A stretch of DNA of 63,005 nucleotides, filler included, from Dimargaris cristalligena (Eukaryota): assembly GCA_003614675.1 (NCBI GenBank). It is 4 parts of 4 records of this genome, joined end to end, with 100 filler letters (N's around TTAATTAATTAA, not from the genome) between each part and the next. Parts side by side here need not be neighbours in the genome. Positions count along the whole stretch, not along the records: positions 31,617 to 47,266 come from ML002879.1; 3 more parts are not named here. One strand, 5' to 3'. The notes beneath the pieces are model-generated. The model did no database searches. It saw only the letters and a list, made by a program, of their open reading frames with translations, and was not told the DNA's origin. Positions within the stretch are counted from its first letter, which is position 1; each line of letters starts with the position of its first letter. The position numbers and the translations under genes were made by a program. Positions 31,517-57,980 of the stretch are shown here, piece after piece.

Positions 31517-31616
31517 NNNNNNNNNNNNNNNNNNNNNNNNNNNNNNNNNNNNNNNNNNNNTTAATTAATTAANNNNNNNNNNNNNNNNNNNNNNNNNNNN
31601 NNNNNNNNNNNNNNNN
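31517..31616. other. Artificial contig spacer
   Basis: N run with TTAATTAATTAA linker. Confidence 0.98.
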
Positions 31617-31880: not shown

Positions 31881-31998
31881 AGTTGTAGCATTGACTATTC
31901 CCAAGTGGTCACCCACCTTAGTACTAAATCAACTGATCGGGGCTTATCTTCGCAGATCTAACGGGATACGGGGCACATCCCGACATATGGCCACAACT
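31881..31998 (-). rRNA. 5S rRNA gene (type A), intact
   Basis: 118 nt, AGTTGTGGCCATA...GCTACAACT. Helix I pairs. Conserved CCGTATCCCGTTAGATCTGCGAAG and box C AGTACT-GGTGGGTGACCAC. Oligo-T terminator follows. Confidence 0.93.
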
Positions 31999-32099
31999 GA
32001 AAATGTTGTGGTAGGACCTGAGACCACGTAGTCAACCATAGTACTGTCTTTTAAATCACCTTCTATTTTCCTTTTATCAAGCGAAGTTGTGATTTATTA

Positions 32100-33300
32100 T
32101 TTTATAGCCTTGCAATATCATAGCAAGTGAGAGATACATCAAATACCACTTGTATTTATATTTAATATCACCATTAGCCAGATATATTTGTAAATCCCTC
32201 ATTATTAATCAATTCCAGCAGTAATATTACGTAAGTGGAATTTCAACCACATCCTAAGTATAAATACCTTCAGGAGTTGCAGCTCTTAATAAAATATCTC
32301 TTTTTTCATTCTTCTGAACTGTACTGGCAGTTTTGCCTACAGTTGTCTTAGTTATTTTGAAGGATAAACCCTTACTATTTCTTTAAAGTTTGGATAAGGC
32401 ATTCATGCCTATTATTGCTATTATAGCCATTCTGCCACACCACAACAAGAAGTTAAGTAATAGTGCATCCACATAAAATAACATTTTGAATATTAACAAA
32501 TTTTCAGTAAGAACCAGCAAAAGGATTGGGTTGCCTGAAGGTACAAAAATAAATGTCAAAGGGTAGGTTCACTAATTATTGAAAATTACCAATTGGGCTT
32601 GATGCTTTTTTATGAGCCACCACAGGTAGTTCTGGATTACTTGATGTTGATAGTTAGGAACCTAGGATTGTTGTGTGGCTACTGGGTAACTGGAGAGTCT
32701 TAGAGCAACATTGTACAGAGGGTCACCACAGGAAAGGGCCTGGGAGAGGAGGGTGGGTTCCCAGTTATCTGGGTATAGATAAAGGCATTAAGTTTTGGGA
32801 TTTGTGGTTCCTGAGGGGGGGGTATAGTAATACATACATAATTATTTAAAAACAGGAAGCATTGCCAAAAACCCATTAAATAATTGGCTAGAGGTTAGAA
32901 ATAATTTAGTCAACATTGCCCCGTAGTTTACCTACACTAGTATAACTTACCTGGGCTAAATTTTAGATCATCTCACTTTAGGGATCTAGGATGCCTACTT
33001 ATATTAGCAGGAAAGGCCCAATTCAATAGGTACACTATTTGCTACTTTATTAGGTTAATGCCTCCCATGCTAGTAACTATAGGGTAATACAATGGTGCAT
33101 ATAATTTGGATATGTTGGCTTCATCCAATATACCAAAGTGTCCCCTATCCAAACCCTTTGCCACACTCAAAACTATGGGCCAATCCATGGACTGTAGGAG
33201 ATTAAAACTGCAACAGTGAGAGAACCACTTTGATGGGGAAATACTATGGCATCACCAATGGTGTTAGAGTACTAACCAATAGAAATCCCACTATGGGAGA
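32100..33300. repeat. CpG-depleted decayed repeat/TE relic upstream of the 5S gene
   Basis: Almost no CpG over about 1 kb. Stop-interrupted ORF-like stretch on the minus strand at about 32560-32800. Confidence 0.4.
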
Positions 33301-33531
33301 TATATAGCGAATCAATAATTAATCAATAAAGGTTGGTCTTTTTCTTCTCTCTTAATTGATTTAATGCTAACAAATGGCTTCATTCCAAAAGCCAATTCCA
33401 TTCGGGCTTCCGGGTTTCCACTGTTGTTGATTTTGAGCATTCCAAATAGTTACTTTTCTCTTAAACTTCGAAACCTAAAATTGCCGCTTTGCGTCATTGT
33501 CAGTCCCGCATTGCTCCCCCTAAACTCGAAG

Positions 33532-34722
33532 ATGGCTACTACATCGCCCCAGTATAATGGTAAATAGCTTCAGACCGAATCGCAGAAGTGCATTTACCAG
33601 TAGACTTAGCTCCTAGCCATGTCCCTTTTCGGTCAAGCGGTTTGCGTGCTTAAGTCAATAGAGCTGCGTTGATATATATTGACCGTACCATTATTGTCCA
33701 ATGTACTAATGTGTCCGATTATGGAATGTTGAATTTTATAAATTTATACCAGCACTGACCCAGGCCATATTAGGGGATATTAACCAGGATGTCAGCCGCT
33801 CAATGGCGACTATTAAATTTCCCGACTTAAATACCCCAACCGTGTCCAACCAGCCCGTGAAGAGCGAGTCAACCCAAGACCAGGAGTCGCCCAGCGCGGC
33901 TAAAATCTTCGAGTTAAATGTCGTCGAAAAGGTAAGCTTTATACTTGACTCCCTTTTCCCATTAGAAATAATTAACTAATAATCTCGCGGCCTTTGGTCA
34001 TATAATTTTGATACAGGATTTGGGTGACATTTATTCGTACTTGTCTAATCGGCGTAAGTCCACTTATATTATCTAACCGGTGTCCTTTTGGCACCCACCT
34101 ATTGCTTCCTCCCCGCAATACGGCTACTAGAAAATCATACGGCTACTGCAAATCGCTAGCGAGACCCTAAACATGCTTGCTAGTGCCGATCACGAGGAGC
34201 TGTTGAACGACTCCAATTCCACTGCCTTTCTATCGGCCAACTCTGGTCTGAAGCAGTACGACGACAACACTAAGCAATATTTGCAATTACTTGATGTAAG
34301 TGTCTCTCATTCGTTGGGTGTTTGACTAAATGGTGGTAATAACTACATCTGAGTTAACTTTATGCGATGCGACAACGTCTATTTTAGACGAAAAAAAAAT
34401 AAAAATGGTCCTTCGGCATTACAACCTCGAATTTAGAAGAGGACTTGAGCCAATCTTCTATTAATTCGCCCTACCTAACTAATTAAATATGTGTGTGTGT
34501 CTATTCGTTTTTCACATTTCACCGTTCTCCACTGTGCGGAATCATTAGGAAATTCAATTGAGTATGCGTAAGCAGTATCACTATTTGACGTTGTCTGGCA
34601 CGGCTGGCTTTAACCTTCCTGTGCGGGTATCGGTCTACGACTTGGATAAAGTCTTGGATGCTCTCACCCGTGCTATCGGTCTCGTTCGCGCTGAATTGAC
34701 TGCGCTCAGTAATATGCAGTAG
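33532..34722 (+). CDS. MED11: Mediator subunit Med11; exons 33532-33559, 33753-33931, 34131-34295, 34549-34722
   Basis: Manually spliced protein ...AAKIFELNVVEK|KIIRLLQIASETLNML...KQYLQLLD|EIQLSMRKQYHYLT... matches the Med11 helical pattern. All junctions are GT-AG with branch points. Confidence 0.75.
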
Positions 34723-35767
34723 CGTGGTTAGGGCTGGAATGGGAGAGAATACCCGTTTGATTTAGGCCCTCGAAATAACCCGTGTATAATAAACACCATG
34801 TAATTTGCTGACCCGGCAAGTGCAGATTTCTTCCACACCCCATTGCCGCTATCCGGTTCTATTACCAAAGCTATAAGTGTGCATTGCGCTAAGGGGCGGT
34901 CTAATACTGCGTCGGCCGATTACTAGACATAGTGGCAACAATAGGCCGAGTGCCCATTGTTACGTTGGTCATGCTCGTCTACAACTGGGGCCGCCTTTCG
35001 AAAGACGGGTTGATTCTTAACCCACGGCAAACCCCTATTGTAGGACCATTCGTGGAGCCAGCATGACCCCCATTTCATTTGCAATACATTATATTTGCCC
35101 CTCAATAACTGCAATGGCTGAGCCGGTCAGGATACCTTCTGTCGTTGGGGAAGAAAAGGGGTATTGGTGGGTATTGATTTTGGAATCAGTTTCCTGGTTT
35201 GGTTTTAGGAATATTCACTATAATATACCTATGTAATATATCATTGAAATTGAATTGTAATGAGGTGTTCGCCCTTCCAAGTCAAAGGGGGGACACCGGG
35301 TCGGTAATTAGTTTCTGCCGCCCAGCCGACTGTAATATATAATAAGCCGTAATCTGGAACCTTTCCGCCTGCCATTTCCACCTCTTACACTGACGGGACA
35401 TATACCGCCGACCAGCCTGGTGTTCCGCCGGTCTCAGTTGGAGCTACGTAGATAAGTGGGAAAGTGGTGTTACATCACCAGTAAATATACCGCCCGTAGT
35501 GTTGTTGTTTCCCGGTTGTCCTGCGTTTGTTTTTGCCAGCTGCTTATTATCTTCTATCAAGTATACTTGGCATGGTCACGCCTTAAATTCGTATATCCAC
35601 CACCTATTCAATCGTGACTCATTCACTTACTCTTCTGTTTGTCTCTCACCTGTTCGACCATTGCTCGGTTCTATAATTCCTTCGAATTGGTTCTCCGTCG
35701 CCTTTGTCGACCCACCCTCCCCTACTCTTTACCCTATAACCCTCCGGCTCTAGCCCCACAGCCCATA

Positions 35768-37248
35768 ATGGCCTCAGCACGCGCGGCCCCTGCCCGACTT
35801 CCTCCGCTTAGCCAGCGCTTGGTGGAATTGGCTAAAGTAAGTTGCACTATTGCAATACTGTCAGTCAAAGGCTTCTGTGTCTTACATCCCAGAATCGACC
35901 ACGCAATCTATGTACTTCAATTTACCCTTACAGGGTCCTAATTTTATATAAGAGGCCGTGTCTCGACACCTGTTTATCCCATCGGGACGGCGGTCTAAGT
36001 AGTTCGAATAGATCCTCTGACCCTTTCTTGGTGGCATTCACTCATAAGGGGGCCCTCATCAACACCTTAGCACACACTAGTCGATATGACGTCAAACTTG
36101 GAATGGCGGTGGTGGTCACCAATCCAATGAGTTTATCATTCCTGCTAACCATTTCGATTTATTGATATTCATCTGAAATTGATGGCTATAATCCCCCGAA
36201 CTATCCCCTCCCGAACACCAGACTGCCGAATTCGTGTGGTGGATTGGACATGTCATCGTGGTCATATTTGCCAGCCTCTACTTTATCCGCCTATTCCTGA
36301 CCTTCACCTCCGTGCCTTCCCTGTACTACCGAGCCTACCTCGGTGCCCTCCTAAGCTATATCGTGGTCATCTACAAGTCCCACGGCAAGCCCCAGTTCAA
36401 TACCGAGTTCCTCCAGCGCATCGGAGGCGACGAAAATGTGCAGTACTTCTTTTTGGCCCTGACCTGGTATCTCATGGCCCCCCTTTTCGTCACTTTACCG
36501 CCCTTCTTGATCTTTTCGTCCCTGCACACCGCCAACTATATGATCCACAATCTATTGCCGACCCTGTTCCCCCAGATCACCGCCGAACTCGCGGCTCAAT
36601 CGTCGACCGCCTCCGGCTCCCGCCGGTCCGGCAATGGCAGTAAAGATGCTGGTGCCCAGGCCCGTGACTTAGCTAAGCTTACCTTCCCCGCCCGCATGGC
36701 TAGTATCCTGCAGACATCGTACAAGAACCTCAATACCCCTGCTCTGAACGCGGCCGGACTTTGGGAAGTCGCCGTCGTTATGCCTGGTTTAGTTCTGGCT
36801 GCTATCACGTAAGTTGAGATGGGATGCCCCGCTGTATTACAAACTGGGCTACTATTTTAATATGTTTTACATGTGTGTGTGCTCTATTAACCTACTCCCT
36901 GTCGACCTTATCGCTCACTTATGGAGTCCGATCACTGTCACTAATACGGCCAGCTCTATACACATTTTTGATGTATCCATTGCTTCTCCAACCGATAGTT
37001 TCCAGGGATCGTTCATCGCCCCCTTCTTCTACGCCCATTTCCTTCGTATGCGCTATATTTTCTCGAGCAAGACCCAACAGGCCTTTAGTTTTGTGCGTGC
37101 CAAGCTCGACCAATTCTTCTGCCCTCCCTCGGCCCACCCTAGCATCCCCCCGGTGGTTACTTCCACCTACGTCAAGATGAGAGACTGGACCATCAACTTT
37201 GGGAATAAGGCTACCCAGCAGCGTCAGAGTCAACAAGCTGCCCGCTAA
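35768..37248 (+). CDS. POM33: TMEM33/Pom33 family ER/nuclear-envelope membrane protein; exons 35768-35836, 36222-36808, 36999-37248
   Basis: WWIGH, YYRAYLGALLSYIVV, DENVQYFFLALTW, FSSLH, YAHFLRMRY. Introns keep the frame. Confidence 0.9.
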
Positions 37249-37659
37249 TTTGCTGGCCCAGGTTCTTCCCCTCCTGCAGCCTTCTATTTTTTCAACCCCT
37301 CGCCCCCCAGCAATACCAGCCGACGTTACTACATGATTCAGGTATACTTGTCCACATACCTCGTTGTTTCTATCCATCCCGTTCACTACATTCTCTCTAT
37401 TATACATAGCTTTATATATTGATATATATACATGTGTGTGCGTTCTCATATTAGTATGTTTTAAAAGGGTTTCAATTAGTCCAATGTCATTTTCTGACTG
37501 TTTGGTTGAAGCGACTTTGCGTTGTAGCCTTCATTTTGGCCCACCTTGGGCCTAACGAGAACCCATTAAATATTAACTGTTTTCGTATTATGATCAAATC
37601 TAAAGTAAATTTAACACATTGGGTAAGAAAAAATACCTCCGGCGGCGGTTTGTCGTTAT

Positions 37660-39353
37660 CTAAACGGCGGGGGCTGAGTTGATGCGATCGGCAAATAAAG
37701 CGAATGAGCAAATTCACAAAAAAAAGGGGAGGTTAACACGGCCGATTCAATTTATCGACTTTACACGGTACTGTGTCGGATACGGGCCCCTGGGTACCAC
37801 CTGGGCCCCAACGTAATGTTTAACACATTCCAGGGGGTGGTTTCTGGGGAGCAAGGGGCGGGTTGGCCTTGGCCCCTCTCTTGAATTATCCTTGTGAATT
37901 CCGATAACAGTGGTTTAAGGATTCCTAAATGGTGAGCCATCCTCCCCCCCACTCCCCGTCCAACTCCACGACTACTAATGCTAATACGGACACATCTTAG
38001 ATCGACCCCTCATTTAACACCAATTATAGTATACTTACCGAAGCCGACGCGGTGGTTTTTGGCATCGAAGACCGAATAATAATAGCGTAGGAAAGTGTTG
38101 CCCACAATCCACCGCTGGGGTAGACTGCCGACACCGAAACCGGATTTGCACGAGTCGGAGCCGTTGTCAATAACGTAGGCCTCAGGGGGCAGCGGGAACG
38201 AGATGCCGTTCATTTGGATATGGACCACGGGAAGTTCATCCAGTTGGCAGGTGATACTGAACATGCTGGAGGAGGACGAGTCGCGGGTAGCCCCCAGGGC
38301 GTCGTTAATAGTTTCGGCGTCGTCGGCGTTCATCAGGATGAGGGAGGTACCCGTATCAATGATGGCTGATTGACTGCTCAATTCCAGCTGGTCCTGGTCA
38401 GCGGGAAGGATGTTCATAGCATTGGCCAGGCCTACTCCGGTGAGGGCCACTTCCCAGTACAGCTGCCGAGTCACCGGTATGTAGGCGATGGGTCCCCGGA
38501 ACTGGGCGGGATCAACTCCCCCGAAAATAACTTCGGAACCGCCGTTGGGGCCCCGTCGACTATTGACGTAGAATGAAAATATGGGTTCCTGAACGAGATT
38601 GAGGCTCAGCATGTGGTCGAAGAGGGTATCCGTGCCCAATTTGGATAGCGCGCTATAGGCCAGACCAACAATGCCGTCCAAGGGAGTACGGGCGAAGAAG
38701 GGAGCCATTTCCGTGCTTTCCCCGAATGACTGGTGGGGTACAGCAATGTCGCCCACTTCGGCGGTGTCGTAGCTCTGGACGCCCCGGACGAATCCCGTTC
38801 CGTAGCGCACGTAGAAGGTTTGCCCTGAGTTGCCCTGGTAGGAGGACGAGCTGGCCCCGTCGAACCGACTTTTCATGGCGCAGACGGTGGATTCGCATTG
38901 AACCGACGGTACCCAAAAGTCCGCACTACCGGTATCGAACACCACCTGGAAGGTTTGTCCCGGAGTACCCACATTGACGGGTCCGAAGTAAAGCACATTG
39001 TTGTGGTTGGCTAATTGGGTGGTCAGCGGCCGATTGGCCGGCAACGGCTTACGGGGGCGGGGACCCGCCCGGACTTCGCGAACACCGAGTGGCACCGTCT
39101 TGGGATCTGTCGGGTCCTTTGGTTCTTCCTCGCCGGTCTGGGACATATCCAGATCGACGAGTTGTTGGAGTGCGGTGGTCGTGTTCATGAGACCGTATTT
39201 GACTTGGGTCCGGATAATCTGATCCTGGAGAAAGGTATATAAGTTGCGGTCGTCGGGCACATGGCCAACGAGAGGGACCCGGGCTATTTTGGCAGCAGTG
39301 GCCTGGTGGGCCAGGGTCAACAAAAAGAACCCCGACAGAATGTAGACGCGCAT
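37660..39353 (-). CDS. Secreted pepsin-like aspartic protease (A1); exons 39353-38039 and 37673-37660
   Basis: Signal peptide, catalytic FDTGSAD and IDTGTS, WIVGNTFLRYYYSVFD. The final intron gives the C-terminus RVGFAPAV*. Confidence 0.93.
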
Positions 39354-41059
39354 AGTTAGCGGTGTAGGAGGTAGGCAATCTGTGCGAATAAGATACTTAG
39401 GGCAAGATAAAAAAACGTAAAACTGGTGTATCCAGCGATGTCGAATTATTGATCGGTGATATAAAATAAAGTAATCAGTTAGTAAATACTGTGGTGCTTG
39501 AAATAAAAATACAATACGCGTTGAGTCATGGTAAAAAGCTCGAGTTCATTCAGAAATACCCCGAAGTTCGCAGTATCAGTCAAGGTCAAATAAATATACA
39601 GACCGGCGGGTATTTCCCGATCAGGGTAACTATTAAATGGTAGACGATAAATCCGATTCAGTAATCTAGCCCGGCGCGCTAGAGACACTCATTATATAGG
39701 AACTGGGTCCGCCAATTCCCTGGCTTCTCCACCACTCCATGGCATCGGCTTGTCTGAAACCGCCCGGAGTCTGGATTCGGACGATTTGTGCCATTAGAGA
39801 CCGAGGGGGGAATAGGTAGTATAACTCCAACTCTCTCCCTTGGGCGATGGAGCCGTTCACCTGGGGTTAATGCCCTTCTCGTCCCACCCCCATCCCCAGT
39901 CCCCTTGTTAATCCACCTACTACTTTTTAAAACCACCCTGAGTGTCAGCTACTCGATCTCGTGGATGCAAGATAGTCAACTGAGTTAAGGAGTACGTGCG
40001 GGGGTAAATATTAGGGGTATTTTGAGGCCATTACTGTAATATTGGTTAAAGGATACGCGAGTACCGAGATCAAGGGGAGGACAGCGGTCCTAGGAATGGG
40101 ACCAGGGGTATTGTTGAAGTGTCACTGGTCAATTAAAACTCCGAGCACCGTGGCATTAACTTATTAGGTGACACCTATGGCGGGGGATCACAAGGGAAAA
40201 CCTATTTGTAAGGTTAATCATCCCCTTACAATTCATTCAAACTTATGTTTTGCTGGGCAGAACTTACCCTATATGCCTCGTGCGCTATGCAAGGTTCTTA
40301 TTGTAGGTCAAATCGAAGTATAGTCAACCCTTCGAGTTTGCGTAAGCTGTAGCGACTCGTCTATCCACGATGACTACAGGAGAGGCAATAAGCGGTAGAG
40401 GTTGAAAAACTCCCCATAATCCCCCCTCTTCTTGACCCAACCTAATTCCGGTGCTAAGGGTTTCGGACACGTTCCCCTGACGATAGCCTAGGACGCTAGG
40501 ATCCATTGGTAGGGGATAAGTCCGTCGGCATCTAAGTACTGTCAACTATTTTAGGATGCGGGGTTTATTATACAGCAATCTACGTCATCGAGTGGCCTAA
40601 TAATGAGAAACTCCTTCAGACGTAGGTGTTTTAAGGCCGCGTGGTTTACCTTGTGGAACAGATCGGGGTTCAGACTTGTTAGCCCCCTCCCCCTTGAGTT
40701 ACCCTGAGTCTTACACGTCCAGTTTGGTTTATTTTACTAGCTAAAGGACCTTTGAATTTGAATTTTCTTACCAAAAAAGAATAGGATAAAAGTGGTAGAT
40801 AAAGTAAGACTAGAAAAGTGAGTAATGGGATAGTGGCAAGTACTGTAAGGATATGGGGATAGCGGCAATCGAGATATAGCCCAAAGTAGTATTTTTGAAA
40901 CAGGTGGGCAGGGTACACTACAATGGTTGCTGAAGGGATATTGCCGAGTGGAGAATGGCAATGGGTGGTACTGGGCGGTTTCGGCTATCCAATAGCTAGA
41001 CCCTTTTTCGAAAATGGGAGGTCCGTGGGAGGGGTCTTAGGTTAATTGAAGGCCAGCTC

Positions 41060-42469
41060 CTAGCATTTGCCATCGATGGAGTAATCGGGCGCGGTATACT
41101 CGGCCTGGTGCCATCTAGTGACATTATTATTGTAATAGGCCACGGGGTGGTTATTAATATATTCCGCCGTTGGGAAGTCCGGCGTATCACACGACACGGC
41201 AATATTGTTAGGGTCTTGGTATACGCGCACGTAGTCGACCAACATGGCCGCAGGGAATTCGAGTTTGTCCAGTTCGACCGGACTGAACCCGGAGGCCATG
41301 CCCAAGTTGAGAATGATGTACATGGGTTCTTCCGCGATGGAACGCTGACCGATGCCCGAGAACTGGTTGGAACCCACGACATTGTAGTCGATGCCCCAGG
41401 TGGGTTGGTCACCGACGAACCAGTTCACATCCCCCTGGGTGCCTGGCGTGTACTGGAAGCCGTACGTTTGGTAGCCCTTGCCGCCGTACCAGCCGGGGTC
41501 AAGGTCCGTCACGCCCGATAGAGCCTGCTGGTACGGACCGCCGACGTAGGTGTTGATTTTGGTCAGATTGCCGTTGTGAAGCTTAGCGTAGTCAAAGGCG
41601 GCTTCGTAGCGAAAGTCGAAGGGGGCTACTTGGAACGACTGGGAAATAGACCCCGGCGCGCCGCTGTAGCCGCCCGTTGCTTCGAAGATATCAATTTCGG
41701 GCGCCCCCCGTCCCTTACCGGGGTTAGGGTGGTCGGTACCGGTGCATACGCACTTATTGAGCCGCTGGCCGGGTAAGTAGGAGAGCGCCGAGTTGGTTTG
41801 GTTGACCAAGACCCCCAAGTCGCAGTTGTCATAGGTGTACGGCCACAGTCCGTCGGTGGTGGCGCCGTAGCCGGCCCGGCCCAGATTACCGAGGGTCCAC
41901 GCGGCGGGCCACAGCCCGGACACCCCCGACTTGAAGGGCATGGACACATTGACTTCGATAAGCCCACCCTGAAAGCAGAATTTGTTCCAGGACTGTATCA
42001 TACCACTGCGGTAGTCTAGCGTCCCCGTGGGTTTCTTGTCCATTTGGAGGACCAGATTGCCCCCTTCGGTCCAGACCTGTTCGGGCTTGTAGTACTCCAT
42101 GTCCATGGTGGGCCAGTACCACAGGTCGACCGCTTCCCAGTGGGGGTCCTCCCCGGCCTTGAATGTCCGACCGTCCTTGTTGAATTCATCGGAGAACACC
42201 AGCGTGTACTCCTTGCCGTCAAAGGTGGTTTTTGTTAGGGCTTCGGCCGGCGTGTCGGAGTCGATGGGGAGGTTCTTGGGGTGTAGTGGCTGGTAGACAT
42301 GATTGGGATTCTTCTTGGGCGGACCCTTCTTCAGCATGTTCTGGGCGATGGGGTATATGATGAAGAGCGAAAGCAGCGCGAGAACGATAAAGCCGAGTAC
42401 CAGAACATTGCACCAACCCCGTGGAGACCACCATACTTTCTTGCGGAGTTTCTCCCTCAAGGTGGCCAT
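41060..42469 (-). CDS. KRE6: KRE6/SKN1 beta-1,6-glucan synthesis-associated GH16 protein
   Basis: N-terminal TM segment, LVFSDEFN, SGMIQSWNKFCF, GNLGRAGYGATTDGLWPY, GRGAPEIDIFEA, VDYVRVYQ. Confidence 0.92.
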   Translation of the reverse strand: MATLREKLRKKVWWSPRGWCNVLVLGFIVLALLSLFIIYPIAQNMLKKGPPKKNPNHVYQPLHPKNLPIDSDTPAEALTKTTFDGKEYTLVFSDEFNKDGRTFKAGEDPHWEAVDLWYWPTMDMEYYKPEQVWTEGGNLVLQMDKKPTGTLDYRSGMIQSWNKFCFQGGLIEVNVSMPFKSGVSGLWPAAWTLGNLGRAGYGATTDGLWPYTYDNCDLGVLVNQTNSALSYLPGQRLNKCVCTGTDHPNPGKGRGAPEIDIFEATGGYSGAPGSISQSFQVAPFDFRYEAAFDYAKLHNGNLTKINTYVGGPYQQALSGVTDLDPGWYGGKGYQTYGFQYTPGTQGDVNWFVGDQPTWGIDYNVVGSNQFSGIGQRSIAEEPMYIILNLGMASGFSPVELDKLEFPAAMLVDYVRVYQDPNNIAVSCDTPDFPTAEYINNHPVAYYNNNVTRWHQAEYTAPDYSIDGKC

Positions 42470-43190
42470 AGTGAATAGATAAGGTCAAAAGAAGATATTG
42501 ATACACCGAATTCTATGAGTGGTATGGATATGTGTATATATATACCTAGTAGTGGAAAGCGAAGCGTCGCCTATTAGAGGCGTTCGAACATAAAGAAGAC
42601 ACGCAACCGAGAGTCTAGAACGTCGGGAAGTAATAAAAATAGATATCTAAATAAAATTGGAAAATACCGCTACTACGATAATTAAAGAACAAGTGGTGAA
42701 GCAGGTGAAGGAAGTAGCCATTGGCACTCCAAGGCGACGGTATTCAAGATAATTGATGGATGTAATAGAGCGGAGAGATAATCCAAGGGGACCAACAGCA
42801 AGGACGGCCAGTCTATACAGCCGTCGTTGCCCCTATGGTTAATCATGATGGCAATTAGACGATCGCATCTAGGGTGCGTCGGTTCGGCTAGATTAATGTG
42901 ACTTTCCGGAAATAGGCACGCGCAAGGGGTGAAGAGTAGAGTGACTGAGGGAATTGGGCTCAGTGGTGCATCTGGTATCATTGGCGCGAGTGCCTATTGG
43001 TCCGTTCTGTCAGTTAATAACAGCTCAGGGGTTTTACCTCCTCTATTCCCATTCATTCTCTCTCTAAGCTTTTCAACGGTACTTGGTAAACCAGTAAAGC
43101 CTGTCAAAAAATATATATAACTAAATAATGACGTTATTATAAATACCAGAAAAGTTAATAGAGAAATTAATAGCCAAAAAAATAGAAAAA

Positions 43191-43301
43191 AGTTGTAACA
43201 CCAACTATTCCCAAGTGATCACCCACCTCAGTACTAAATTAGCTAATACCAACTTAACTCCGCAGATCTAATAGGATACGGTACAAACTGGTACATATAG
43301 C
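43191..43301 (-). pseudogene. 5S rRNA pseudogene (nt 8-118), 5' end interrupted by a LINE
   Basis: Colinear with the two intact 5S genes over 111 nt, then diverges abruptly at 43302. Multiple G>A changes on the plus strand. Confidence 0.9.
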
Positions 43302-43447
43302 ATCTCTTTCCCATTCCGTCTACTTTTTTCGGCTTTTATAAGAGACCCCTTACCATACCCCCCCCAGCCCGTCCGCAACCTCGACGGCCCCATCCATCCA
43401 TCCATCCAAACCCCAAATACCTACCCGTCTCTACCCCCGGTACACCG

Positions 43448-44441
43448 ATGGCAACTCGTAATAGTGGCCAGCCCCCCCCCTGGCCCCCCCGATCCATCCA
43501 TCCTAGCCCTGCGACAGGAATTCCTCCAAACCCTAGCTACCCATAGTACCGAACTTACCAAGCAGTTTGCATCCCAACTCGCAGACCAGCAGGCCCACAT
43601 GGATACCCGACTAGCTGGTTATGACGACCTCCTTACCCGTTTATCTCTCATTGAGGCCGAACGTGATGCTGCCCGCCAAGCCCTTGCTACATCTGAAGCT
43701 AAGAACAAAGTACTCACTGCCCAGATTACCTCCCTTATGGCCCATACCCCTAGTCCTAACCACCCCAAAACCACATCCACCAGCCCCCAGCCTGAACTGA
43801 CCTATGCTTCCCAGGTAGCTAAGCCTGCTCCACTCACTGGCCCTCCAGGCCCCCATCATACCACTATCAATGCCCGCAACCCATCCACCAATAGCCGCTT
43901 GGCAGCAGCCACCCGTGCATTCCAACTCCCCACTGGTCCACAAGGCTATGAGTACATCATTATCCCCCGAGGCCGTAAAATGTCCCGTACAGAAGCCCGC
44001 CGTAGCCTCTGTGTCCTTGGTATTGACACAGCCCGCATCCTGGATATTATCTTCCCAGCACGTAACCATGCAGCCCTACTGGTACACCAACAGTACTCCA
44101 CAACCCTCTGTGCCACCCTTAAGGCTGCTAAGGTCACCCCAATTGAGGACTTTGAATTCTGGGACCCTAAACACCTTGCTGATCCCAAATTTGATAATGA
44201 GTCTGATGCTTCCAAGCATACCATTGCTATGGAGATACACCGTGATCGCTGTATCCGCTCACTTATGTTTCTGAGTGCTAATCGCCCCCATGTTGCAACT
44301 GCCATTGGCTACTTCTTTGCTGAACAGGGCTGGATTTCTACCTCGGATATCCCACCCAGCCGTTCTAATCCCTCTAAGCGTTCCTGCCCAACCAATGGTG
44401 ACTCTGACCAGGACTCTATGGATAACCATATGCAAGAATGA
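43448..44441 (+). CDS. LINE ORF1 (coiled-coil, putative nucleic-acid chaperone); ATG 43448 needs a 1-nt correction in the C9 run 43472-43480
   Basis: Coiled-coil N-terminus and TYAS motif. Lies directly before ORF2 with an ATGA overlap. Confidence 0.8.
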
Positions 44442-47266
44442 GTCCCCTTAGAATAGCCCTATGGAATGCCCGCTCACTCTCCACAGCTAAAGCTCAGGAT
44501 GCCCTCCGCCATGCCTCCCTCTTTGATATAATCTTTATTACCGAAACTTGGCTTCTGCCCCCCAAACGCCTACATACCCCATGGACCCAATACCACCAAT
44601 ATGGCCTACCTACCTCCAACCAGCGGCTTGGTCATATGGGTATCTGTGCCCTTATTAATCCCCTACTTAATATCCCTATTATTAACCTTAATCTTACCTC
44701 TCCTCACTGTCTCGGCCTTTCCCTTGGCTCATTCCAAATTATATGCCTCTATATTCCCCCCCTTCTCCCATCTGAGACGCTCATTTCTACCCTATCCTCC
44801 CTCCCCCTCACCCCAAATACCATCCTCTGTGGGGACTTCAACTCCCGACATAGACAGCTTACAGGGGACCACCGCCAAAATACCCTTGGTATAGCCCTCC
44901 TTGAATGGATTACCACTACACCATTCCAAGTCCTTAATAATACCCTGGCCCATGGTATTCCTACCCTCTACCGCTACTTCCCTGGCAGGCCTACCCAGAC
45001 CAGTATCATCGACCTATTTATATGTAACTTTGAAGTGGAATCTGCTTCCTTAAATATCCATAAGGACCTAACACTTGGATCAGACCATGCTGTCCTGATC
45101 CTTACCTTTTCCCCCCCACCCCTCCCTACTCCTCTCCCCCCTACTAGCACCCCCTACAAATGGCGCCTCAATAGACTTGCAGATGAGAAGCACCGCCTCC
45201 AATATACCACCTCTTTTACTACAAACTCTACACCCCTCCTGAATCAATTACTTCCCCTTATTACTAACCCCCCACCCCTAGCCCCTGATATCCACCAACT
45301 CACTCTTGCACTTAATAGCTGTATCTATACTGCACTGGACAGCTCAGTTGGCCGTCAGGGGCCACATACACCCTTCTCCAAGCCTTGGTGGACACCCCAC
45401 CTTACCTCTGCTGTGCAACTTCGTGACCGCCTGTATAAGCAGTGGCACCAGGCTATTGGTATTAACAAAATAGTTAAATGGGCTGCATATCAATTAGCAC
45501 AAAGGAAATTTCGTAATGCTATCCACTCCCACCAGCGGCGGTCCTGGCGCCAATTCTGTACCTCCCTTGAAGAAAACCCCCAGTCAGCCATCTCCCATAT
45601 CAGCCGCATGAATCGCTATCGCCAATTACAGCCCTCATTCACCCATCCAGAGGGCCCCCTAACAGCTACTACTATTATGGCTACTCATTTAGCCCGGACA
45701 TATGATGGGAAACACCTCCCTTCCCCCCGTCCCCCTCCCATCCTATCCAGTGATACTCCATATACACTACCTGATTCACTCCTATCACCATCGACTGTGG
45801 CATACAATATCTGCCGCCTGCCCTATAGGAAGGCTCCTGGCCCTGACCATATTAAGGCTGAAATGCTTCGGCCAATTGCTGGTCCCCTCTCCCTTATCCT
45901 CTCTGCTATCTTCAGTCTCTGCTGGCAGTGGGCCTATACCTCCCCCCTCTGGAGGACAGCTCTAGTTTTCCCTATTTTTAAAAAAGGTGATAGGTCTGAC
46001 CCAGCCAATTATCGGCCAATCTCCCTCACATCACACATCAGGAAATTACTTGAATACTGCCTGGCCCCCTCTCTTAATATATTCACTCCACCCCTAGACC
46101 CAGCACAAGGTGGTTTTCGGCCCCAACGGGGTGCCCCTGACCAGGCACTATGCCTCCATGAGCTTATACAGGCCCATTATAATACCCACCACCATTTTCC
46201 CACTATTGCCTTCCTTGATATTAAGGCAGCCTATGATACAGTAGACCGTTCAGTGATTTGGACAGCTATCTCTAGTGTATCCCCGACCCCTGGGTTCCTC
46301 CCCCTACTTTCCCATATTTTTGATGATATATTCATATCAGTCTCTCTTCAATGCTTTATTTCAGAGCCTTTTAGGCCAAAAACGGGGGTTCTACAGGGCT
46401 CAGTTCTGAGCCCACAACTCTATTCCATCTTTATTAATAGTCTACCCATCTTTCTCCGGCAGGCTGCACACCCATCCACACCCTCTATCCCCCCTATAGT
46501 GGATATAATTACCACCCTCTAGCTATTAACTCACTACTCTATGCTGACGATGTTGCTATTCTTGGCTCCCCAGATGATGTCGCTAACATGTTGGTCCTTG
46601 CTGAGAGGCACTCAATTTTACACGGGTACCGCTGGAGCCCCTCTAAGTGTGTACTCCTCACCACAAACCAGCGGCTCCCCTTTAAACTATATGATACCCC
46701 TCTGACCCGCCAAGAGGATTTTCCTTATTTGGGTATCCCATTTACACGAAAGGGGATATCTCCTCCCCTTCTCCTGGCCCACACTACCAGTCGTGCATAC
46801 AACTGTATGAGGCTGCTTACAGCTATGGGCTTGAAGCGGTCTGGCTTTGACACTGCCCTATGCCTGCGCCTATACACTGCCCTTGTGCGCCCAATTTTTG
46901 AGTATGGTATAGCTATATGCTCCCTTAATACAGCCCAGACAAAAACCCTAGAAAAAGCCCAAGATATCTGCCTACGGCAGATTATTGGTGGCCAGGATAG
47001 ATCATCTACCCATGTCCTCCGTCATATCTATGGCCTCCCATCAATGGCACATAGGGCCCAGGTCCTCATTGCTAAATACTGCCTCCGGGTGGCCCTTCTG
47101 CCTGGGGATAGCCTCCTTACACTCATCCAGCCGATCCTCCGAGAATCATACCTCTCTTCCACTCTCTGCCGATCCCCTCTCTTCCTCTCTATCCCCCCAT
47201 CCCCCTCTAATTCTGATATTAGGACTGCCATACTGAAGGCCCGCCTCACTGAAGTTGATTTAATTT
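44438..47266 (+). CDS. LINE ORF2: AP endonuclease plus reverse transcriptase; frameshift near the C6 run 46489-46494; 3' partial
   Basis: APE motifs WNARSL, ITETW, GDFNS, IIDL, SDH. RT motifs KAPGPD, NYRPISL, FLDIKAAYD, GVLQGSVLSP, YADD (second frame), YLGI. Confidence 0.93.
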
Positions 47267-47366
47267 NNNNNNNNNNNNNNNNNNNNNNNNNNNNNNNNNN
47301 NNNNNNNNNNTTAATTAATTAANNNNNNNNNNNNNNNNNNNNNNNNNNNNNNNNNNNNNNNNNNNN
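47267..47366. other. Artificial contig spacer
   Basis: N run with TTAATTAATTAA linker. Confidence 0.98.
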
Positions 47367-48822: not shown

Positions 48823-49806
48823 ATGATTCTGAACCCGCCCACGACCAACTCCCCTACCACCCCAGCTGCCGCCTCCACCCCGACCGGTCTAGATCGGCAT
48901 GAGGAGCACCAGTACCTTGACCTGGTCAAGCACATTCTCCAAAATGGAGAGAAGCGGCTGGACCGTACCGGAACCGGCACCCTGGCTCTATTCGCTCCCC
49001 CTCAGCTCCGCTTTAATCTGCGTGACCAGGCCTTTCCCCTCCTCACCACGAAGCGCGTGTTCGTGCGGGCCGTCATTGAGGAACTCCTGTGGTTCATCCG
49101 GGGGGACACCAACGGCCGGAATCTGGCCGCCCGGGGGGTCAAAATCTGGGAAGGTAACGGTTCGCGGGAGTACCTGGACCGGGTGGGTTTAGGCCACCGG
49201 GAAGAAGGCGACTTGGGACCCATCTACGGCTGGCAGTGGCGGCACTTTGGGGCCCAGTACGTGAACTGCCACACCGACTACACGGGCCGGGGGGTGGATC
49301 AGCTCCAGCAGGTCATTCACACTATCCGCACGAACCCGGCCGACCGCCGGATCATCTTGAGTGCCTGGAATCCCGCCGATATCCCCCAGATGGCCCTACC
49401 CCCCTGCCACATGTTCTGCCAGTTTTACGTTGCCAATATCCAGGACGGCGTCGTTGATCACCCCGACGAAACGAAACGCCCCCGCCTCTCGTGCCAGCTC
49501 TACCAGCGTTCGTGCGATATGGGGCTGGGCGTACCCTTTAATATTGCGAGCTACGCCCTGTTGACCTGCATGATTGCTCACGTGACGGGGTTGGCCCCAG
49601 GCGAGTTCGTCCACGCCATGGGTGATACCCATATTTATGTCGACCATGTGGACGCCCTACAGACCCAGATTCAACGCGAACCCCACCCGTTCCCCAAATT
49701 AACCATCAAACGCCGCGTTCCATCCATTGATGAATTCACAATCGACGACTTTGAAATTAGCGACTACAAGACCCACAGTAAGATTGTGATGGCGATGTCC
49801 GTCTAG
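48823..49806 (+). CDS. CDC21: Thymidylate synthase
   Basis: [65 protein letters not shown]. Confidence 0.97.
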
Positions 49807-52585: not shown

Positions 52586-52962
52586 TGGAGAGTGTAATTA
52601 TTTTGTCAGGCAACTTACTCCCCTCCTCTTTAGGTATCAATGCATAAAATGAATGTACAATGCACATTGGACATGTGGAACGTTATAAAACATTGTTATG
52701 GGGGTAAACTCATTTAAGCACACATTTATGTCAATTCTAAGGAATGTATCCCAAGGTAAAAATGAAACAAGAGTGTCATAAGACACAGCAAAAAACCCCC
52801 CATTCTTAGAATTTGGGAGTGTGTAGAAAAAGAGCAATTTACTGCCATATCCGAAGCAAAAAAAAAAGAAACATCAGAGATACTACGGTCATACTGTCAG
52901 TAATTCCATCAGCTTGGTATACCCCATTCCTTAAAAGTGGAGGGAGAAGAGGTATACATTAC

Positions 52963-54387
52963 TTATACAAAGCTCCACTCAATAGGGACACGACCAGCGT
53001 TGCGGTCCGCAATTTTATCAAACGTCGCGGGGCTCAAGTCAAGCGACCCATGCAGGCATTCGTCTCCAGGGCACGTATCGGTCACGGTGGCTCGCACGGT
53101 ACCCTTGGGTCCCTTAATTTCGACTTGCTTGCCACAAACTTCGGCCATATTAGGATTGGGCATTTCACCGTACTGGTGCTTATTGAGAGCCACCACCAGT
53201 TCGGAGTCCTGATGTAATTGGCCGCACGAGCCAAGTCCTACAGCGGGGTAGTAGAAGGTACCGTCACCCCGGAATTGAAAGTTGGTGGTGGTAGCGGTAG
53301 TGGTAGTGGTGGGGGCAGCGACGACGGGAGGCGGAATTTCGGTAGGGGGAGTAGGGGATTGGGGAAGTGCGGGTGCCGCTGGGGGGGCCTGGGCCGGAAC
53401 CGGTGAGGCAGCGGCGACGGGTGGGAGGGGGAGTGGTGATTCGATTGGAGGAGAAGGGGAAGGTACCACGACAGCGGGAGCCTCGACGGGTATTTCGGAA
53501 AGGATAGGCAGAGCAACCGGTTCTTCCATCATGGGTAATAATGCCGTCTGGGGAATTTGACTGGCCTCGGGGAGATTATCTTCAGTAACGGGGAGAAAAT
53601 TCTTAGGGACCGGATAGTTGTAGTTACTGGGCTCTGCGTTAATCAGGGATTCCATAGTAGGAGGGGAGTGGGCCGGTTGGACTGACGGAGTCATCATACT
53701 GTTCTCCATTATGCGCATGGGGTCGTCTTCAACGGGGGAAGGTGTCACCTGGCTGGCATTATGGCGATGGTTCATAGGAAGAGGGCGTCCGAACCAGGGG
53801 CGGGTCAAGCGTCTCCGGGAACGATTGCGGTTAGGGCGACTGCGGTGGGAGCCGAAGCGAGGGCGGTTCAGCCGCTGACGCCGACGATAGGGCGACGACC
53901 GACGGGGATTTTTCCCGGCCAGCATCCGGAGCCGGTGCAATACATGGGCTAGGCGCATATGAATCTGTTGATTCATATCGGTGGCGGTGGTGGTGGTGGG
54001 ACGATGGCTATTATGGGTAAATCGTTGCTGTTTAACCCGTCCCATTGGAGGAGAGTAGTAGTAGGGATGCTGGCGGCTACCAAAGGTGGTGGTGTCCATT
54101 GATACCGCGGGAGTGCGGACCATAGTCAAGGGCTTCGTAAACTCGGAGCTGCCGGACTGCGAGTTGTCTGGTAAGTAGTTGTTGGGCATATCGAAGGCTG
54201 ATGCTGCCTGTTCATTCTTTCTGCCCAGGCTAAAGCGTAGTTTAGCTTCTTCCAGTTGGGACGTATTGGGGGAATCGATGGTGTCACTACCGCCACTTAG
54301 GAGGGCATCAGCCGGCATACGACCATAGACGGGAAGGGCCAGGCAGCCTATAGTGACAATGATGAGTTTGGAAATGGGACCAGCCAT
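52963..54387 (-). CDS. Secreted DPBB expansin-like protein with long Arg-rich and Pro-rich N-terminal region (paralog 1)
   Basis: Signal peptide. C-terminal GDGTFYYPAVGLGSCG...DTCPGDEC...LDLSPATF...GRVPIEWSFV. Confidence 0.9.
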   Translation of the reverse strand: MAGPISKLIIVTIGCLALPVYGRMPADALLSGGSDTIDSPNTSQLEEAKLRFSLGRKNEQAASAFDMPNNYLPDNSQSGSSEFTKPLTMVRTPAVSMDTTTFGSRQHPYYYSPPMGRVKQQRFTHNSHRPTTTTATDMNQQIHMRLAHVLHRLRMLAGKNPRRSSPYRRRQRLNRPRFGSHRSRPNRNRSRRRLTRPWFGRPLPMNHRHNASQVTPSPVEDDPMRIMENSMMTPSVQPAHSPPTMESLINAEPSNYNYPVPKNFLPVTEDNLPEASQIPQTALLPMMEEPVALPILSEIPVEAPAVVVPSPSPPIESPLPLPPVAAASPVPAQAPPAAPALPQSPTPPTEIPPPVVAAPTTTTTATTTNFQFRGDGTFYYPAVGLGSCGQLHQDSELVVALNKHQYGEMPNPNMAEVCGKQVEIKGPKGTVRATVTDTCPGDECLHGSLDLSPATFDKIADRNAGRVPIEWSFV

Positions 54388-54610
54388 TGTTGGGGGTTGT
54401 CAAGGGCGTCGGGGAGTTCTTTTGGTGACGGGGAAAGTAGGTAGGCGTAAAGGAATACCGGTCGGGCTGTTTTGGGCGCTGGCTAAGATGGGGAGAGGGT
54501 ACAATAGGGGTAAATGTATCAAAACGTATACAATAAAAATGAATATGAGATAAAATGTTTGGTAGTCGAATAGAAAATTGGGGATTTTCAGAATCTTGCT
54601 AAATATATCA

Positions 54611-54642
54611 AGGATGAATGCCAAAAGCACAGCTTATTGACA
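54611..54642 (-). promoter_or_regulatory. Conserved 32-nt 5' leader element (copy 1)
   Basis: 31/32 identical to 57949-57980. Lies between TATAAATA (~54726-54733) and the ATG. Confidence 0.55.
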
Positions 54643-56511
54643 TAAAAAAAAGGCGGAGGTGTGTAAAAGTAAAACAGAGACAACTAATTGAGATAAAGAG
54701 TGGGTAAAAGGGTCTTCGCTATCGTATTTATAATAGCAACGGACCTGGCGTAGACCAGTTCACCCCATAACAGGAACACATGTGGTCGAGCTGTACTATT
54801 AGTCGACTGTTTCGTGCATCGAATATACTGTATTTCCCTAAAGTATCGATTTCCATGGGGTGTGGAAGAAGGGAAAAGGAAACGGTATACCCTAGTAGCG
54901 AGGAAAGGTAGGTGGTGGTGGTGGTGGAATCGAGGATGAGGAAATCTCGAGCATCTACGACCGTGGTGGTGTCACAGAGGTCACGCATAGCTTAGTTATT
55001 CCGCGCCTCTTGTAATACGGGGAGGGATGGACGAACGAGACCTTTCCTCTCCCTCCCTTCCCCTTTTCCTTACGTCAATTGCATGGTTATTCTTCTGGCG
55101 GTATAGTCCCCCCACTCTGAGCCTCGAACAAGCCATTTACGTACCACTTGGCTAAGCGGGGATAGACAAGCCAGGGGGGGGCATGCCTTTGTAGCATCCC
55201 GTGTATTTCAAGCGTAACCCTCGGGTTGACGAATAGGTTAATAGTGACACACCAGTCATGGGGTCCGACTAGTCAAGGGTCCAGAATGTAAGAGAAGGGG
55301 AGAGGAAGTGTCCATAGCAAGACAGGGCTACGTCAGGTCGTATTAAACGACTGGAGGGCCATCGTGTGCAGCGAATGAATGGGGTTTTTCATTATGCGAA
55401 CTCTTTGCGGGATGCCTAATGGGGCGGGGTGTAGCGTGTACCAGTCAGATCACCGGTAAGCCGGATGTGGCTTCCAGGTTTGGCATACCCCAGCTAAAAA
55501 CCCTCGCTTATACATAGGCCAATAGTGCCAATTGCACTCTACGGACTTAATAGTCGGGTTTGGAGATGATCTCTGATATCGGCGCTACTTTGGGCTGAAG
55601 AGTAGTGGTAGCTTGGTTCATACATTTGCGTTTATTTTGCTATAGTAGAATATGTTCTATTTGACGCCATTGTGGTCAGTTTCTTCGATTTGTTTAACAC
55701 TATAGTAAACCTTTAGTAGATGGTGGTGCGCACCGTAAGTTGAATCTGATGGTATACGTGAGAATATCCTTTTATGTTATAAAGGAGGAGCACTGGATTT
55801 TCCATAATTGGTTTGCTTATCGGGGACCACGCACTCTGTATCCACAATTTAATAATACACCGCATAGCTACCCTCTCCGCTTTAGTGTCTATATTCGTCA
55901 AAGAATCCAAATTACGATTTATGCAATGCCCTTTATTTTCTTATATTTCGATAGGCCTATCATCCACTCTACTTCATGTGCAGTTTGAGTGAATACACAG
56001 TTAGTCCCTGCAGTTATATAATAACACTGGCTTTAGGAACTGGCAACAATTGATTGAGTGATTGATGTAAGCTAACTCATTCACTAAATTAAAGTCGTTA
56101 AATATTAACCTTTTCAGCGGGACTTACTCCTCGTGTTTGATGTATAGGTGATCTACGTTTGTCACGCCTATAAATTTATGTCAATCTTACAGTGAAATGG
56201 TCCGATTTAGATAATATATTTTAGACAGGAAACCATCCAAGATGGCCAAGTGGAACTAATCAACATTACATTGTAGAAATAACAATCATCATTTATTTTC
56301 ATACTTATTCGTGGCAAATCATTAAGAAAAAATGTCAACAATGTATAATATCATAATATTGTAATGGGAGGGGGGCATGCTCTCCATTCCGATAAAGTAT
56401 GCATTGGTATACTTGGAAACAGGAAATGGCCGGTTGGGGATACCACTGGTAAGGGTGCGGTATACCCATTTCCAATATAAAAAAAATCAAAACAAAAAAG
56501 GCAATCAAACC

Positions 56512-57726
56512 TTACACAAAGCTCCATTGGATGGGGACGCGACCAGTGTCAAAGTCCGCAATTTTCTCAAACGCAGCGGGACTCAAGTCAAGCGAGCCGT
56601 AGCCGCAACCGACTACCGGGCACGTATCAACGATGGTAGCCCGCACACTGCCCTTGGGTCCCTTGATTTCGACCTGTTTGCCGCACACCTCGGCTAAATT
56701 AGGATTGGCCATATCACCATATTGTTGCTTATTGAGAGCCACCACCAGTTCGGAATCCTGGTGTAATTGGCCGCACGAACCCGTGCCTACCCCGGGATTA
56801 TAGAAGGTACCGTCCCCTTGGAACTGGGAGCCCGCGGCGCCACCGGATGGTGCGGAGGGGGCGGACTCCGGAGCGGAGGGAGAGGCAACCACCGCCGGAG
56901 TTGCAGGTACCTCGGAGACGGTGGACGGGGCCACCGGTGCTTCCATTGGGGGTAACTGAGGGACCACTGCACTAGCCTCGACCGGAGCAGCTTCGGACAC
57001 GGGAGGAATGTCGAGTACCGGATTGGCGGGGAATTCGTTCATCTGGGGCTCTGTAGGAGGAGACTGGGCCTGAACCTGGAGTGACATGCTCTCGCTCAGA
57101 CGTAATTTGTTAGCGGTGGGTCTCATGAATAAGTCCTTGAGGTCAATGGGCAGAGGACGCCCGAACCGGGGACGGCGGTTCTGACCGTACTTGGACTGGG
57201 AGCGAGTGCCGGTGCGATGACGCTGGGGACCGAACCGCGGCCGACTCAGGCGCATACGCCGGAGGTAGGGCGTTGTACTGCCGAGGCTTTCCTCAGCCAG
57301 GGCATGCAGGCGGTTTAATAACCGGGCCCGGCGTTCATCAATCGGTTGGGTCATACCGGCGGTAGGTCGTTGGCCATTCCTCATTAGGCGTTGCCATCTG
57401 GCCCACGCCATGTGGTGGAGGGACTGTTTCTCATCGGCGGAGGTTGACCGGGGGTTATCCGCATCCGACTCGGAAGGGTCGTTCTCAACGGTCCAGGGCT
57501 TGGGAAACTCGAAGCCGTAGGAACGAGGCCCGTTGGATAGGTCATCATCGCCATCATCATGATATCCGCTCGGGTTGAAGCGAGGCTTGACCTCCTCCGT
57601 GTGGGGGCTATTGAGGGCTATAAACGTGTCACTACTTAGGGAGGCATCGATTGGCATACGGCCGTGGACCGGCAGGGCCAGGCAACCGATGGTGAACAGG
57701 ATGAGTTTGGAAATGGGGCCAGCCAT
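56512..57726 (-). CDS. Secreted DPBB expansin-like protein (tandem paralog 2)
   Basis: Near-identical signal peptide (MAGPISKLI) and DPBB domain to 52963-54387. Confidence 0.9.
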   Translation of the reverse strand: MAGPISKLILFTIGCLALPVHGRMPIDASLSSDTFIALNSPHTEEVKPRFNPSGYHDDGDDDLSNGPRSYGFEFPKPWTVENDPSESDADNPRSTSADEKQSLHHMAWARWQRLMRNGQRPTAGMTQPIDERRARLLNRLHALAEESLGSTTPYLRRMRLSRPRFGPQRHRTGTRSQSKYGQNRRPRFGRPLPIDLKDLFMRPTANKLRLSESMSLQVQAQSPPTEPQMNEFPANPVLDIPPVSEAAPVEASAVVPQLPPMEAPVAPSTVSEVPATPAVVASPSAPESAPSAPSGGAAGSQFQGDGTFYNPGVGTGSCGQLHQDSELVVALNKQQYGDMANPNLAEVCGKQVEIKGPKGSVRATIVDTCPVVGCGYGSLDLSPAAFEKIADFDTGRVPIQWSFV

Positions 57727-57948
57727 TGTAAATATTGGGGAGGTTTAAGAGTTCAGTTGGTGACAAGGAACGTATGTAAATGTGTATCAGTTGGGCTTTT
57801 TGGGCTTTGGGTGGTACGGCGATAGTGAAGATGGGTTCAATTGGAAAATGTGTGTAGAAGTGCGAAATCAAAGGATTGGTTGTGGTTTTAAAAAGAGTGA
57901 ATCTATAATTATTGGCTAAGAAACTTCGGGAGTTCGTAAATTATATTT

Positions 57949-57980
57949 AGGATAAATGCCAAAAGCACAGCTTATTGACA
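57949..57980 (-). promoter_or_regulatory. Conserved 32-nt 5' leader element (copy 2)
   Basis: Matches 54611-54642. Lies downstream of TATAAATA (~58058-58065). Confidence 0.55.

Follow-up and report, generated by a model that had tools for sequence, protein, structure and literature searches.

The DNA analyzed here is a stretch of 63,005 nucleotides (nt) from the fungus Dimargaris cristalligena (assembly GCA_003614675.1), in the following referred to as the window. It is composed of four pieces of ~15.65 kb, separated by N spacers at 15738-15837, 31517-31616 and 47267-47366, and carries three copies of the 5S ribosomal RNA (rRNA) gene. One of these copies is interrupted by a retrotransposon without long terminal repeats (non-LTR), a long interspersed nuclear element (LINE) with two open reading frames (ORFs). 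The second of these contains the domains of an apurinic/apyrimidinic (AP) endonuclease (APE) and of a reverse transcriptase (RT). The insertion sits at the end of the third piece (31617-47266). The features that bear on it are given below, with nt 1 as the first nucleotide of the 5S gene; UTR stands for untranslated region and Pol III for RNA polymerase III.

31880-31998, minus strand: intact 5S gene, second reference, on the same contig as the LINE (Rfam 91.2 bits; alignment)
43176-43189, minus strand: T-run adjoining the 5S 3' end (TTTTCTATTTTTTT in 5S sense) and aligned with the T-runs of both intact genes; terminator for Pol III in the interrupted gene
43190-43301, minus strand: 5S pseudogene, nt 8-119 (Rfam match 43190-43305, 64.5 bits, E 2.8e-11; gathering score 38)
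43302-43447, plus strand: 5'UTR of the LINE, 146 nt (no 5S similarity beyond 43301; apparent 5' end of the element at 43302)
43448-44441, plus strand: ORF1 (0 Pfam families; similar to the ORF1 portion of P0002, a fusion model from Mucor)
44438-47266, plus strand: ORF2 (Pfam, frames; cut by the contig end ~300 codons before its end)
~44462-45088, plus strand: AP endonuclease domain in ORF2
from ~45980, plus strand: RT domain in ORF2 (YADD at ~46534-46563, in the next frame)
61844-61962, minus strand: intact 5S gene, reference for the uninterrupted target (Rfam 100.7 bits; alignment with flanks)

The interrupted 5S rRNA gene

All three matches to the 5S model of Rfam (RF00001) in the window lie on the minus strand. 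In an alignment including the flanks, the interrupted copy, starting at its 3' end, tracks the intact genes as far as nt 8, with G8 and C9 corresponding to window positions 43301 and 43300. Beyond nt 8 both intact genes read AGTTGTG and are preceded by a common upstream motif, AACATTTTC, which reads GAAAATGTT on the plus strand. In the interrupted copy unrelated sequence replaces nt 7-1 from position 43302 onwards. This copy is devoid of nt 1-7 and of the upstream promoter region, and helix I is unpaired in the Rfam match (43190-43305). The internal control region, according to the alignment, has been kept. Compared with the gene at 61844, the remnant shows multiple C>T and G>A changes and is a decayed pseudogene. 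An orphan 5S 5' end was not found in the window, where AACATTTTCAGTTGTG matched twice, both times in the intact genes.

The three dispersed copies were found in ~62.7 kb of four unlinked contigs and, at 119 nt each, make up ~0.6% of the window, which implies a very large dispersed 5S family. Other 5S contigs from the public sequencing runs described below have loose ends at 43186/43187 and finish in plus-strand A-runs.

Structure of the LINE copy

The retrotransposon extends on the plus strand from 43302, antisense (head-to-head) to the 5S gene, in the order leader, ORF1 and ORF2. Within ORF1, residues 27-298 of P0002 align to window positions 43587-44381 (tblastn with relatives). ORF1 and ORF2 overlap in the motif ATGA at 44438-44441. 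For the ORF2 stretch 44438-46519, Pfam reported Exo_endo_phos (PF03372, 7.8e-07), Exo_endo_phos_2 (PF14529, 6.2e-12) and RVT_1 (PF00078, 1.9e-15). The catalytic columns E36, D133, N135, D192 and H217 of the endonuclease as well as motif A of the RT (FLDIK) are invariant across the family alignment. The C-terminal continuation of ORF2 past the contig end is seen in P0060, a gene model of the same species. Judged by these domains and catalytic motifs, the element is an autonomous APE-type LINE, represented in the window by a copy with two frameshifts.

The first frameshift is due to one extra C in a C-run near 43472. The long ORF1 frame of this copy is 43275-44441, and the ATG at 43448 opens a different frame from that of 43464-44441. 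The second lies in ORF2 near 46488 (judged by the frames, between 46441 and 46522). The window copy looks 5'-complete but is not intact. Its right end is a real contig end at position 47266, and the database record of the window's own ORF1 fragment (P0063) is a 15,650-nt contig that corresponds exactly to 31617-47266. The observed/expected ratio of CpG dinucleotides is 0.41 in the element (43302-47266) versus 0.87 in the remaining contig. Searches of the window by blastn, and by tblastn with six relatives, revealed no further copies of the LINE.

A first-pass annotation, made from the sequence alone, had described a 5S copy that agrees with the intact genes between its 3' end and nt 8 and gives way to a LINE at 43302. 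It had further placed this LINE antisense to the gene, assigned APE and RT domains to it and regarded its 3' junction as lost at the contig end. Rfam and the flank alignment, the strands and the Pfam matches, and the N spacer from 47267 confirm this description. The ATG at 43448, which it had taken as the start of ORF1, has to be given up for the window copy, being out of frame with the long ORF1 frame. The description of the element as 5'-complete holds for its 5' end, but not for its reading frames, since both ORFs are frameshifted.

Copies and junctions in public sequencing runs

Five public sequencing runs of one organism contain 76-81% of the element's words, and the Logan contigs of four of them (X1-X4) were aligned to 42300-47266. 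Loose ends of this alignment are reported for 24 of 91 rows; 586 contig pieces lie outside this listing. The 5S/LINE junction of the window locus is bridged by contigs in all four runs, reaching from 42300 to 43331...43479, so that an artefact in the assembly of the window can be ruled out.

The element is present in multiple copies. Between 114 and 196 contigs per run lay on it, with identities from >99% to <90%. Furthermore, the nearest named proteins are three gene models of D. cristalligena itself, namely P0060 (89% over 93 amino acids (aa), ORF2 C-terminal part), P0064 (82%, ORF1) and P0065 (78%, ORF1). Located on other contigs, they derive from further copies of the element (78-89% aa identity); P0064 and P0065 start inside ORF1 and give no information on the 5' flank. 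The family is low-copy. Contig depth in the last bin was 803 in X1 and 43 in X4, compared with 47.8 and 43.6 in the single-copy flank, but these depths are sums over contigs that vary widely between runs and were not used as copy numbers.

Among the copies, C>T (155-201 places) and G>A (105-146) substitutions dominate over T>C (54-85) and A>G (32-46). The ORF1 differences of P0064 and P0065 from the window are mostly R>H and R>C (16/50 and 13/46, respectively). Because of this dominance, of the R>H and R>C changes and of the CpG ratio of 0.41, the copies can be said to be decaying by CpG deamination, and the window copy is among the less decayed ones. This suggests a methylation-linked deamination of repeats in this fungus.

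The contigs also bear on the two frameshifts. One base is omitted at 43472 in contigs of X2-X4, which brings the ATG at 43448 in frame with ORF1, and contigs of all four runs carry an extra C behind 46488 that rejoins the two ORF2 frames. The X3 contig of the window locus itself keeps the window's reading at 43472 without gaps; hence, the ORF1 defect is real for the window copy. Since other copies are in frame at both broken sites, the family may be active.

A second junction was found in one contig of X1. Here, 5S sequence in antisense runs to 43300 and is joined through the two letters TA to the LINE from 47072, so that a second 5S junction ends at the same base as that of the window locus. 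The joint is known from its coordinates and the two bridging letters. On its LINE side (47 nt) the contig enters at 47072-47085, is gone by 47148 and differs from the window at three positions (47085 C>T, 47103 T>A, 47105 G>A), which indicates a diverged copy other than that of the window. On the 5S side, X1's own contig of the window locus runs unbranched through 43301; the 5S part of the joint is therefore not identical to the window locus over the last 30 nt (k-1). Taken from these contigs, there appears to be a second locus at which antisense 5S, ending at the same base, is joined to a LINE copy without its first 3.77 kb. This 5'-truncated copy sharing the 5S target base of the full-length one was seen in one contig of one of the four runs. 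Its absence from X2-X4 was not counted against the joint, as contigs show presence and not absence.

The exact position of the cut is uncertain within nt 6-8, since the X2 contig of the window locus carries two extra C behind 43300, by which the 5S is readable to nt 7. These could stem either from slippage in the C-run or from the original junction. The same contig ends at 43331, 30 nt past 43301. In a k=31 graph such a stop is expected if sequence common to other copies starts at 43302, which is a weak hint that this is the true 5' end of the element.

No 5' junction of the LINE with a flank other than 5S was present among the 24 of 91 loose-end rows listed. The loose ends at 44795/44841 and 45979/46020 delimit similarity islands of 42-47 nt and are not element ends. 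Contigs matching these two islands in ORF2 (44795-44841 and 45979-46020) are unlike the element on both sides, and depth is raised in the bin 44790-44955. The islands may be small fragments of the element or a common motif elsewhere in the genome.

Relatives of the family

The closest full-length proteins share 38-47% aa identity with the element, are 1229-1393 aa long and come from Mucorales (Mucor velutinosus, Parasitella parasitica) as well as from Logan and JGI contigs. Fragments from Fennellomyces and Mucor mucedo match the C-terminal part of ORF2. The relatives P0001-P0006 carry only PF00078, PF14529 and PF03372, with neither an RNase H nor a zf-RVT domain (PF13966). The family is followed in score by arachnid proteins (E 8e-46 and 2.6e-36), which fall elsewhere in the tree. 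In a search of the PDB, the RTs of R2 and of human L1 score alike (5.6e-11 to 7.8e-08).

A FastTree phylogeny of the RT-containing parts (60 rows) placed the family in a clade of its own with seven members and a support of 100. Its join to the half of the tree that holds the L1-like rows with zf-RVT has a support of 54, in a tree that included no named Tx1, Mutsu or R1 reference.

Dimargaris is a mycoparasite of Mucorales. The nearest kin of the element outside the species all belong to this order (P0002, P0006, P0061 and P0062, 38-47% aa), and both old vertical descent and transfer between host and parasite are conceivable.

Among the 40 related metagenome loci listed, none carried a 5S match at the gathering score, and all matches obtained by blastn with the three 5S copies were at chance level (E >= 0.2). 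This listing did not include the contigs that encode the closer JGI proteins P0003 and P0004. The two closest loci (L001 and L002, 41-42% aa) showed no 5S match at E <= 1 beyond two chance hits. On their contigs only 121 and 186 nt (at least) precede the ORF1 ATG, and both end inside ORF2. Because they probably start in the 5'UTR and stop in ORF2, they show neither junction, and the absence of 5S from them is uninformative. A search of genome contigs yielded one fragment of 1077 nt that lies wholly inside ORF2, and a search of viral contigs gave no match.

One distant relative among the metagenome loci (L023) carries a complete U2 small nuclear RNA gene (72-263, 190.5 bits) ~3.3 kb upstream of, and on the same strand as, an APE/RT LINE match (3606-4316). 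It possibly represents a LINE associated with U2, comparable to Keno/Utopia.

Probable target specificity and alternative explanations

We interpret the insertion as the product of a LINE family that aims at a site within the 5S gene, and give this reading a probability of roughly 0.6. According to this interpretation, the window would hold a nearly full-length copy of a low-copy APE and RT encoding non-LTR retrotransposon with two frameshifts, integrated head-to-head in a dispersed 5S gene between ~nt 7 and 8. The insertion would have separated nt 1-7 of the 5S gene, together with the upstream promoter region, from the remainder of the gene, which would have decayed since. We infer specificity, nick site and mechanism as follows. 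The ORF2 endonuclease would nick the 5S sense strand just 3' of AGTTGTG, and the resulting 3'-OH would prime reverse transcription of the LINE RNA (target-primed reverse transcription, TPRT). Joining of the second strand would then leave the 5' end of the LINE, either full-length or truncated, against nt 8. Site-specific TPRT predicts 5'-truncated copies that share the target base, and the presence of such a copy in X1 supports targeting. The site might be selected because the endonuclease recognizes its sequence, or because the LINE is tethered to the Pol III/TFIIIA-C-B complex that occupies 5S genes; within targeting, we prefer the former over a tethering like that of TRE5.

Several points weigh against this interpretation. 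Only two junctions were seen, and the second is known from a single contig in one of four runs, with none in X2-X4. Junctions with flanks other than 5S may exist beyond the 24 of 91 loose-end rows listed and in the 586 contig pieces. TPRT specificity would show most clearly at the 3' junction, which lies past the end of the contig (47266, inside ORF2). In both junctions an A follows 5S nt 8/9 (GCA versus GTA), which fits a common origin with an internal deletion. With three 5S genes in ~62.7 kb, a single chance insertion is not a rare event. None of the 40 related metagenome loci carried 5S, although the two closest ones are uninformative. Finally, an orientation antisense to the target is, to our knowledge, unusual among known rRNA-gene-specific LINEs.

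The single contig behind the second junction, the A common to both junctions and the lack of 5S in the 40 loci are also what would be expected if a LINE without target preference had inserted into one of many dispersed 5S genes by chance, the second junction being a deleted duplicate or an artefact of one run. With the 5S genes occupying ~0.6% of the window, several to tens of insertions would give odds of a few percent for a 5S hit. However, the second junction is difficult to reconcile with chance. It would require a deletion of 43303-47071, or an artefact, that breaks within 1-2 nt of the 5' boundary of the element. Either is a roughly thousand-fold coincidence, as a random breakpoint in ~4 kb would fall there with a probability of ~1 in 1000 at most. 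Moreover, the LINE side of the X1 contig is diverged, with 3 differences in 47 nt, and its 5S side and the window locus are not identical in the final 30 nt, which argues for a separate, old locus and not for an artefact. We therefore regard chance insertion as unlikely, although it is the most serious of the alternatives.

The first-pass annotation had cautioned that one junction cannot prove specificity. As there are still only two, the caution stands in part, but the X1 joint (43300+TA+47072) has partly lifted it. The proposal of a site-specific 5S retrotransposon, made in the same place, gains from the second junction at the same base, while two junctions only, with a chance hit possible among dense 5S genes, fall short of establishing it.

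A further alternative, which is a sub-case of targeting, is positional. Here, the ORF1 or ORF2 protein would be tethered to the Pol III initiation complex, with 5S merely as the most abundant target. The model for this is TRE5-A of Dictyostelium, likewise an APE and RT encoding LINE, which is described as inserting head-to-head 37-54 bp upstream of transfer RNA (tRNA) and 5S genes, with an ORF1 protein that binds TFIIIB (PMC5911963). The Dimargaris LINE shares the arrangement of TRE5, with its 5' end adjoining the 5' end of a Pol III gene; the junction at +8 lies beside the Pol III start site, and the internal control region of the 5S copy has been kept. But TRE5-A inserts upstream and leaves the gene whole, whereas here the gene is cut from inside at +8, and two junctions at one base fit the reading of a sequence better than a positional window. 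Additionally, no tRNA genes were found in the window, and thus no sign of other Pol III targets. Positional targeting appears improbable, and more so than chance insertion.

Very unlikely is an origin in which the 5S piece travels with the element by 5' transduction or capture, or in which a template switch produced a chimera of the U6-L1 type. Small RNA-LINE chimeras and 5' transduction are known for L1, and in the Dimargaris family 5S adjoins the 5' side of more than one copy. Both variants were nevertheless rejected, the chimera on orientation, since the small RNA would be sense with its 3' end at the LINE and not, as here, antisense with its 5' end at the LINE, and the transduction since 5S is also present on a copy that lacks the 5' 3.77 kb of the LINE. 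Besides, the stop of the X2 contig would put the start of the common repeat at 43302 and not inside the 5S. Taken together, we consider targeting of the 5S gene partly supported and rather right than wrong, but not demonstrated.

Comparison with known target-specific elements

The mechanism proposed for the Dimargaris LINE is that of the R1, TRAS and SART elements of arthropods. In these LINEs the AP endonuclease reads a multicopy target, TPRT follows, and 5'-truncated copies occur at the same site. They differ from the Dimargaris element in their targets, which are 28S rDNA or telomeric repeats, and in their usually sense orientation.

The closest parallel with regard to the target is Mutsu, the 5S rRNA gene-specific LINE of zebrafish (L1-2/3/5_DR in Repbase), which is reported as a two-ORF element of ~5.5 kb with APE and RT that disrupts the 5S gene near its 5' end, its insertion sites being ~20 nt from that end (PMC5340908). 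The Dimargaris element is likewise a two-ORF LINE with APE and RT inside a 5S gene near its 5' end. However, it lies at nt 7/8 instead of ~20 nt, is antisense to the gene, and resides in a zygomycete host with dispersed 5S genes and not a tandem 5S array. The first-pass annotation had named the Tx1-clade Mutsu as a precedent. A link of the family to Tx1 and Mutsu is not borne out by the clade of its own, joined to the tree with a support of 54, nor by the different insertion site, and common descent with Mutsu is unsupported.

In the tabulation of a review from 2024, Mutsu is the only LINE given as inserting 'into 5S', and the fungal rows are without a LINE of 5S genes (PMC10946416). In the full-text literature searched, which did not extend to Repbase and subscription journals, we likewise found no 5S-specific LINE in fungi, so that the corresponding statement of the first-pass annotation stands within this coverage.

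Primary sequence of 5S genes is also described as the target of the Dada-5S elements of fish (PMC8869645); the target is the same, but these are DNA transposons without RT, and their mechanism is unrelated. For early-diverging fungi, Grem-LINE1 of Mucorales has been characterized as a pericentromeric LINE with a CCHC zinc-finger ORF1 and a zf-RVT domain (bioRxiv 10.1101/706580). The Dimargaris family likewise is a LINE of early-diverging fungi and has relatives in Mucorales. An identity of the two was rejected, as the Dimargaris ORF1 has 0 Pfam matches and its relatives are without PF13966.

Further features of the window

Three features of the window lie apart from the insertion. Repeat families of 300, 96 and 47 nt (78-87% identity) are found in 52947-54647 and 56496-57985 at a constant spacing of ~3.34-3.55 kb, suggesting that a segment or gene was duplicated in tandem. 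At the ends of two different contigs, 15860-15920 and 62945-63005 form an inverted repeat of 61 nt (90% complementary), which may be an assembly-breaking repeat. The region 48823-49806 holds an intronless ORF of 327 aa that, judged by eye from its sequence, resembles thymidylate synthase.

Significance of the probable 5S targeting

Target-specific LINEs are studied for safe-harbour integration, for which R2 is being engineered, and for the persistence of selfish elements in compact genomes. If the insertion was due to chance only, the locus would amount to an ordinary decayed LINE in a pseudogene. We see an even chance that the family represents a new lineage of APE-type LINEs in zygomycetes, 5S-specific at nt 7/8 in antisense, which evolved independently of Mutsu, uses the dispersed 5S genes as a safe harbour and is maybe still active. 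If targeting is true, LINEs would have come to target 5S genes a second time and independently, with a new target site right at the 5' end of that gene. The antisense arrangement would be an unusual one in which the element needs a promoter of its own. The target-specific LINEs of multicopy RNA genes would gain a new host group, and the family would offer a handle on the turnover of the hundreds of dispersed 5S genes in this fungus.

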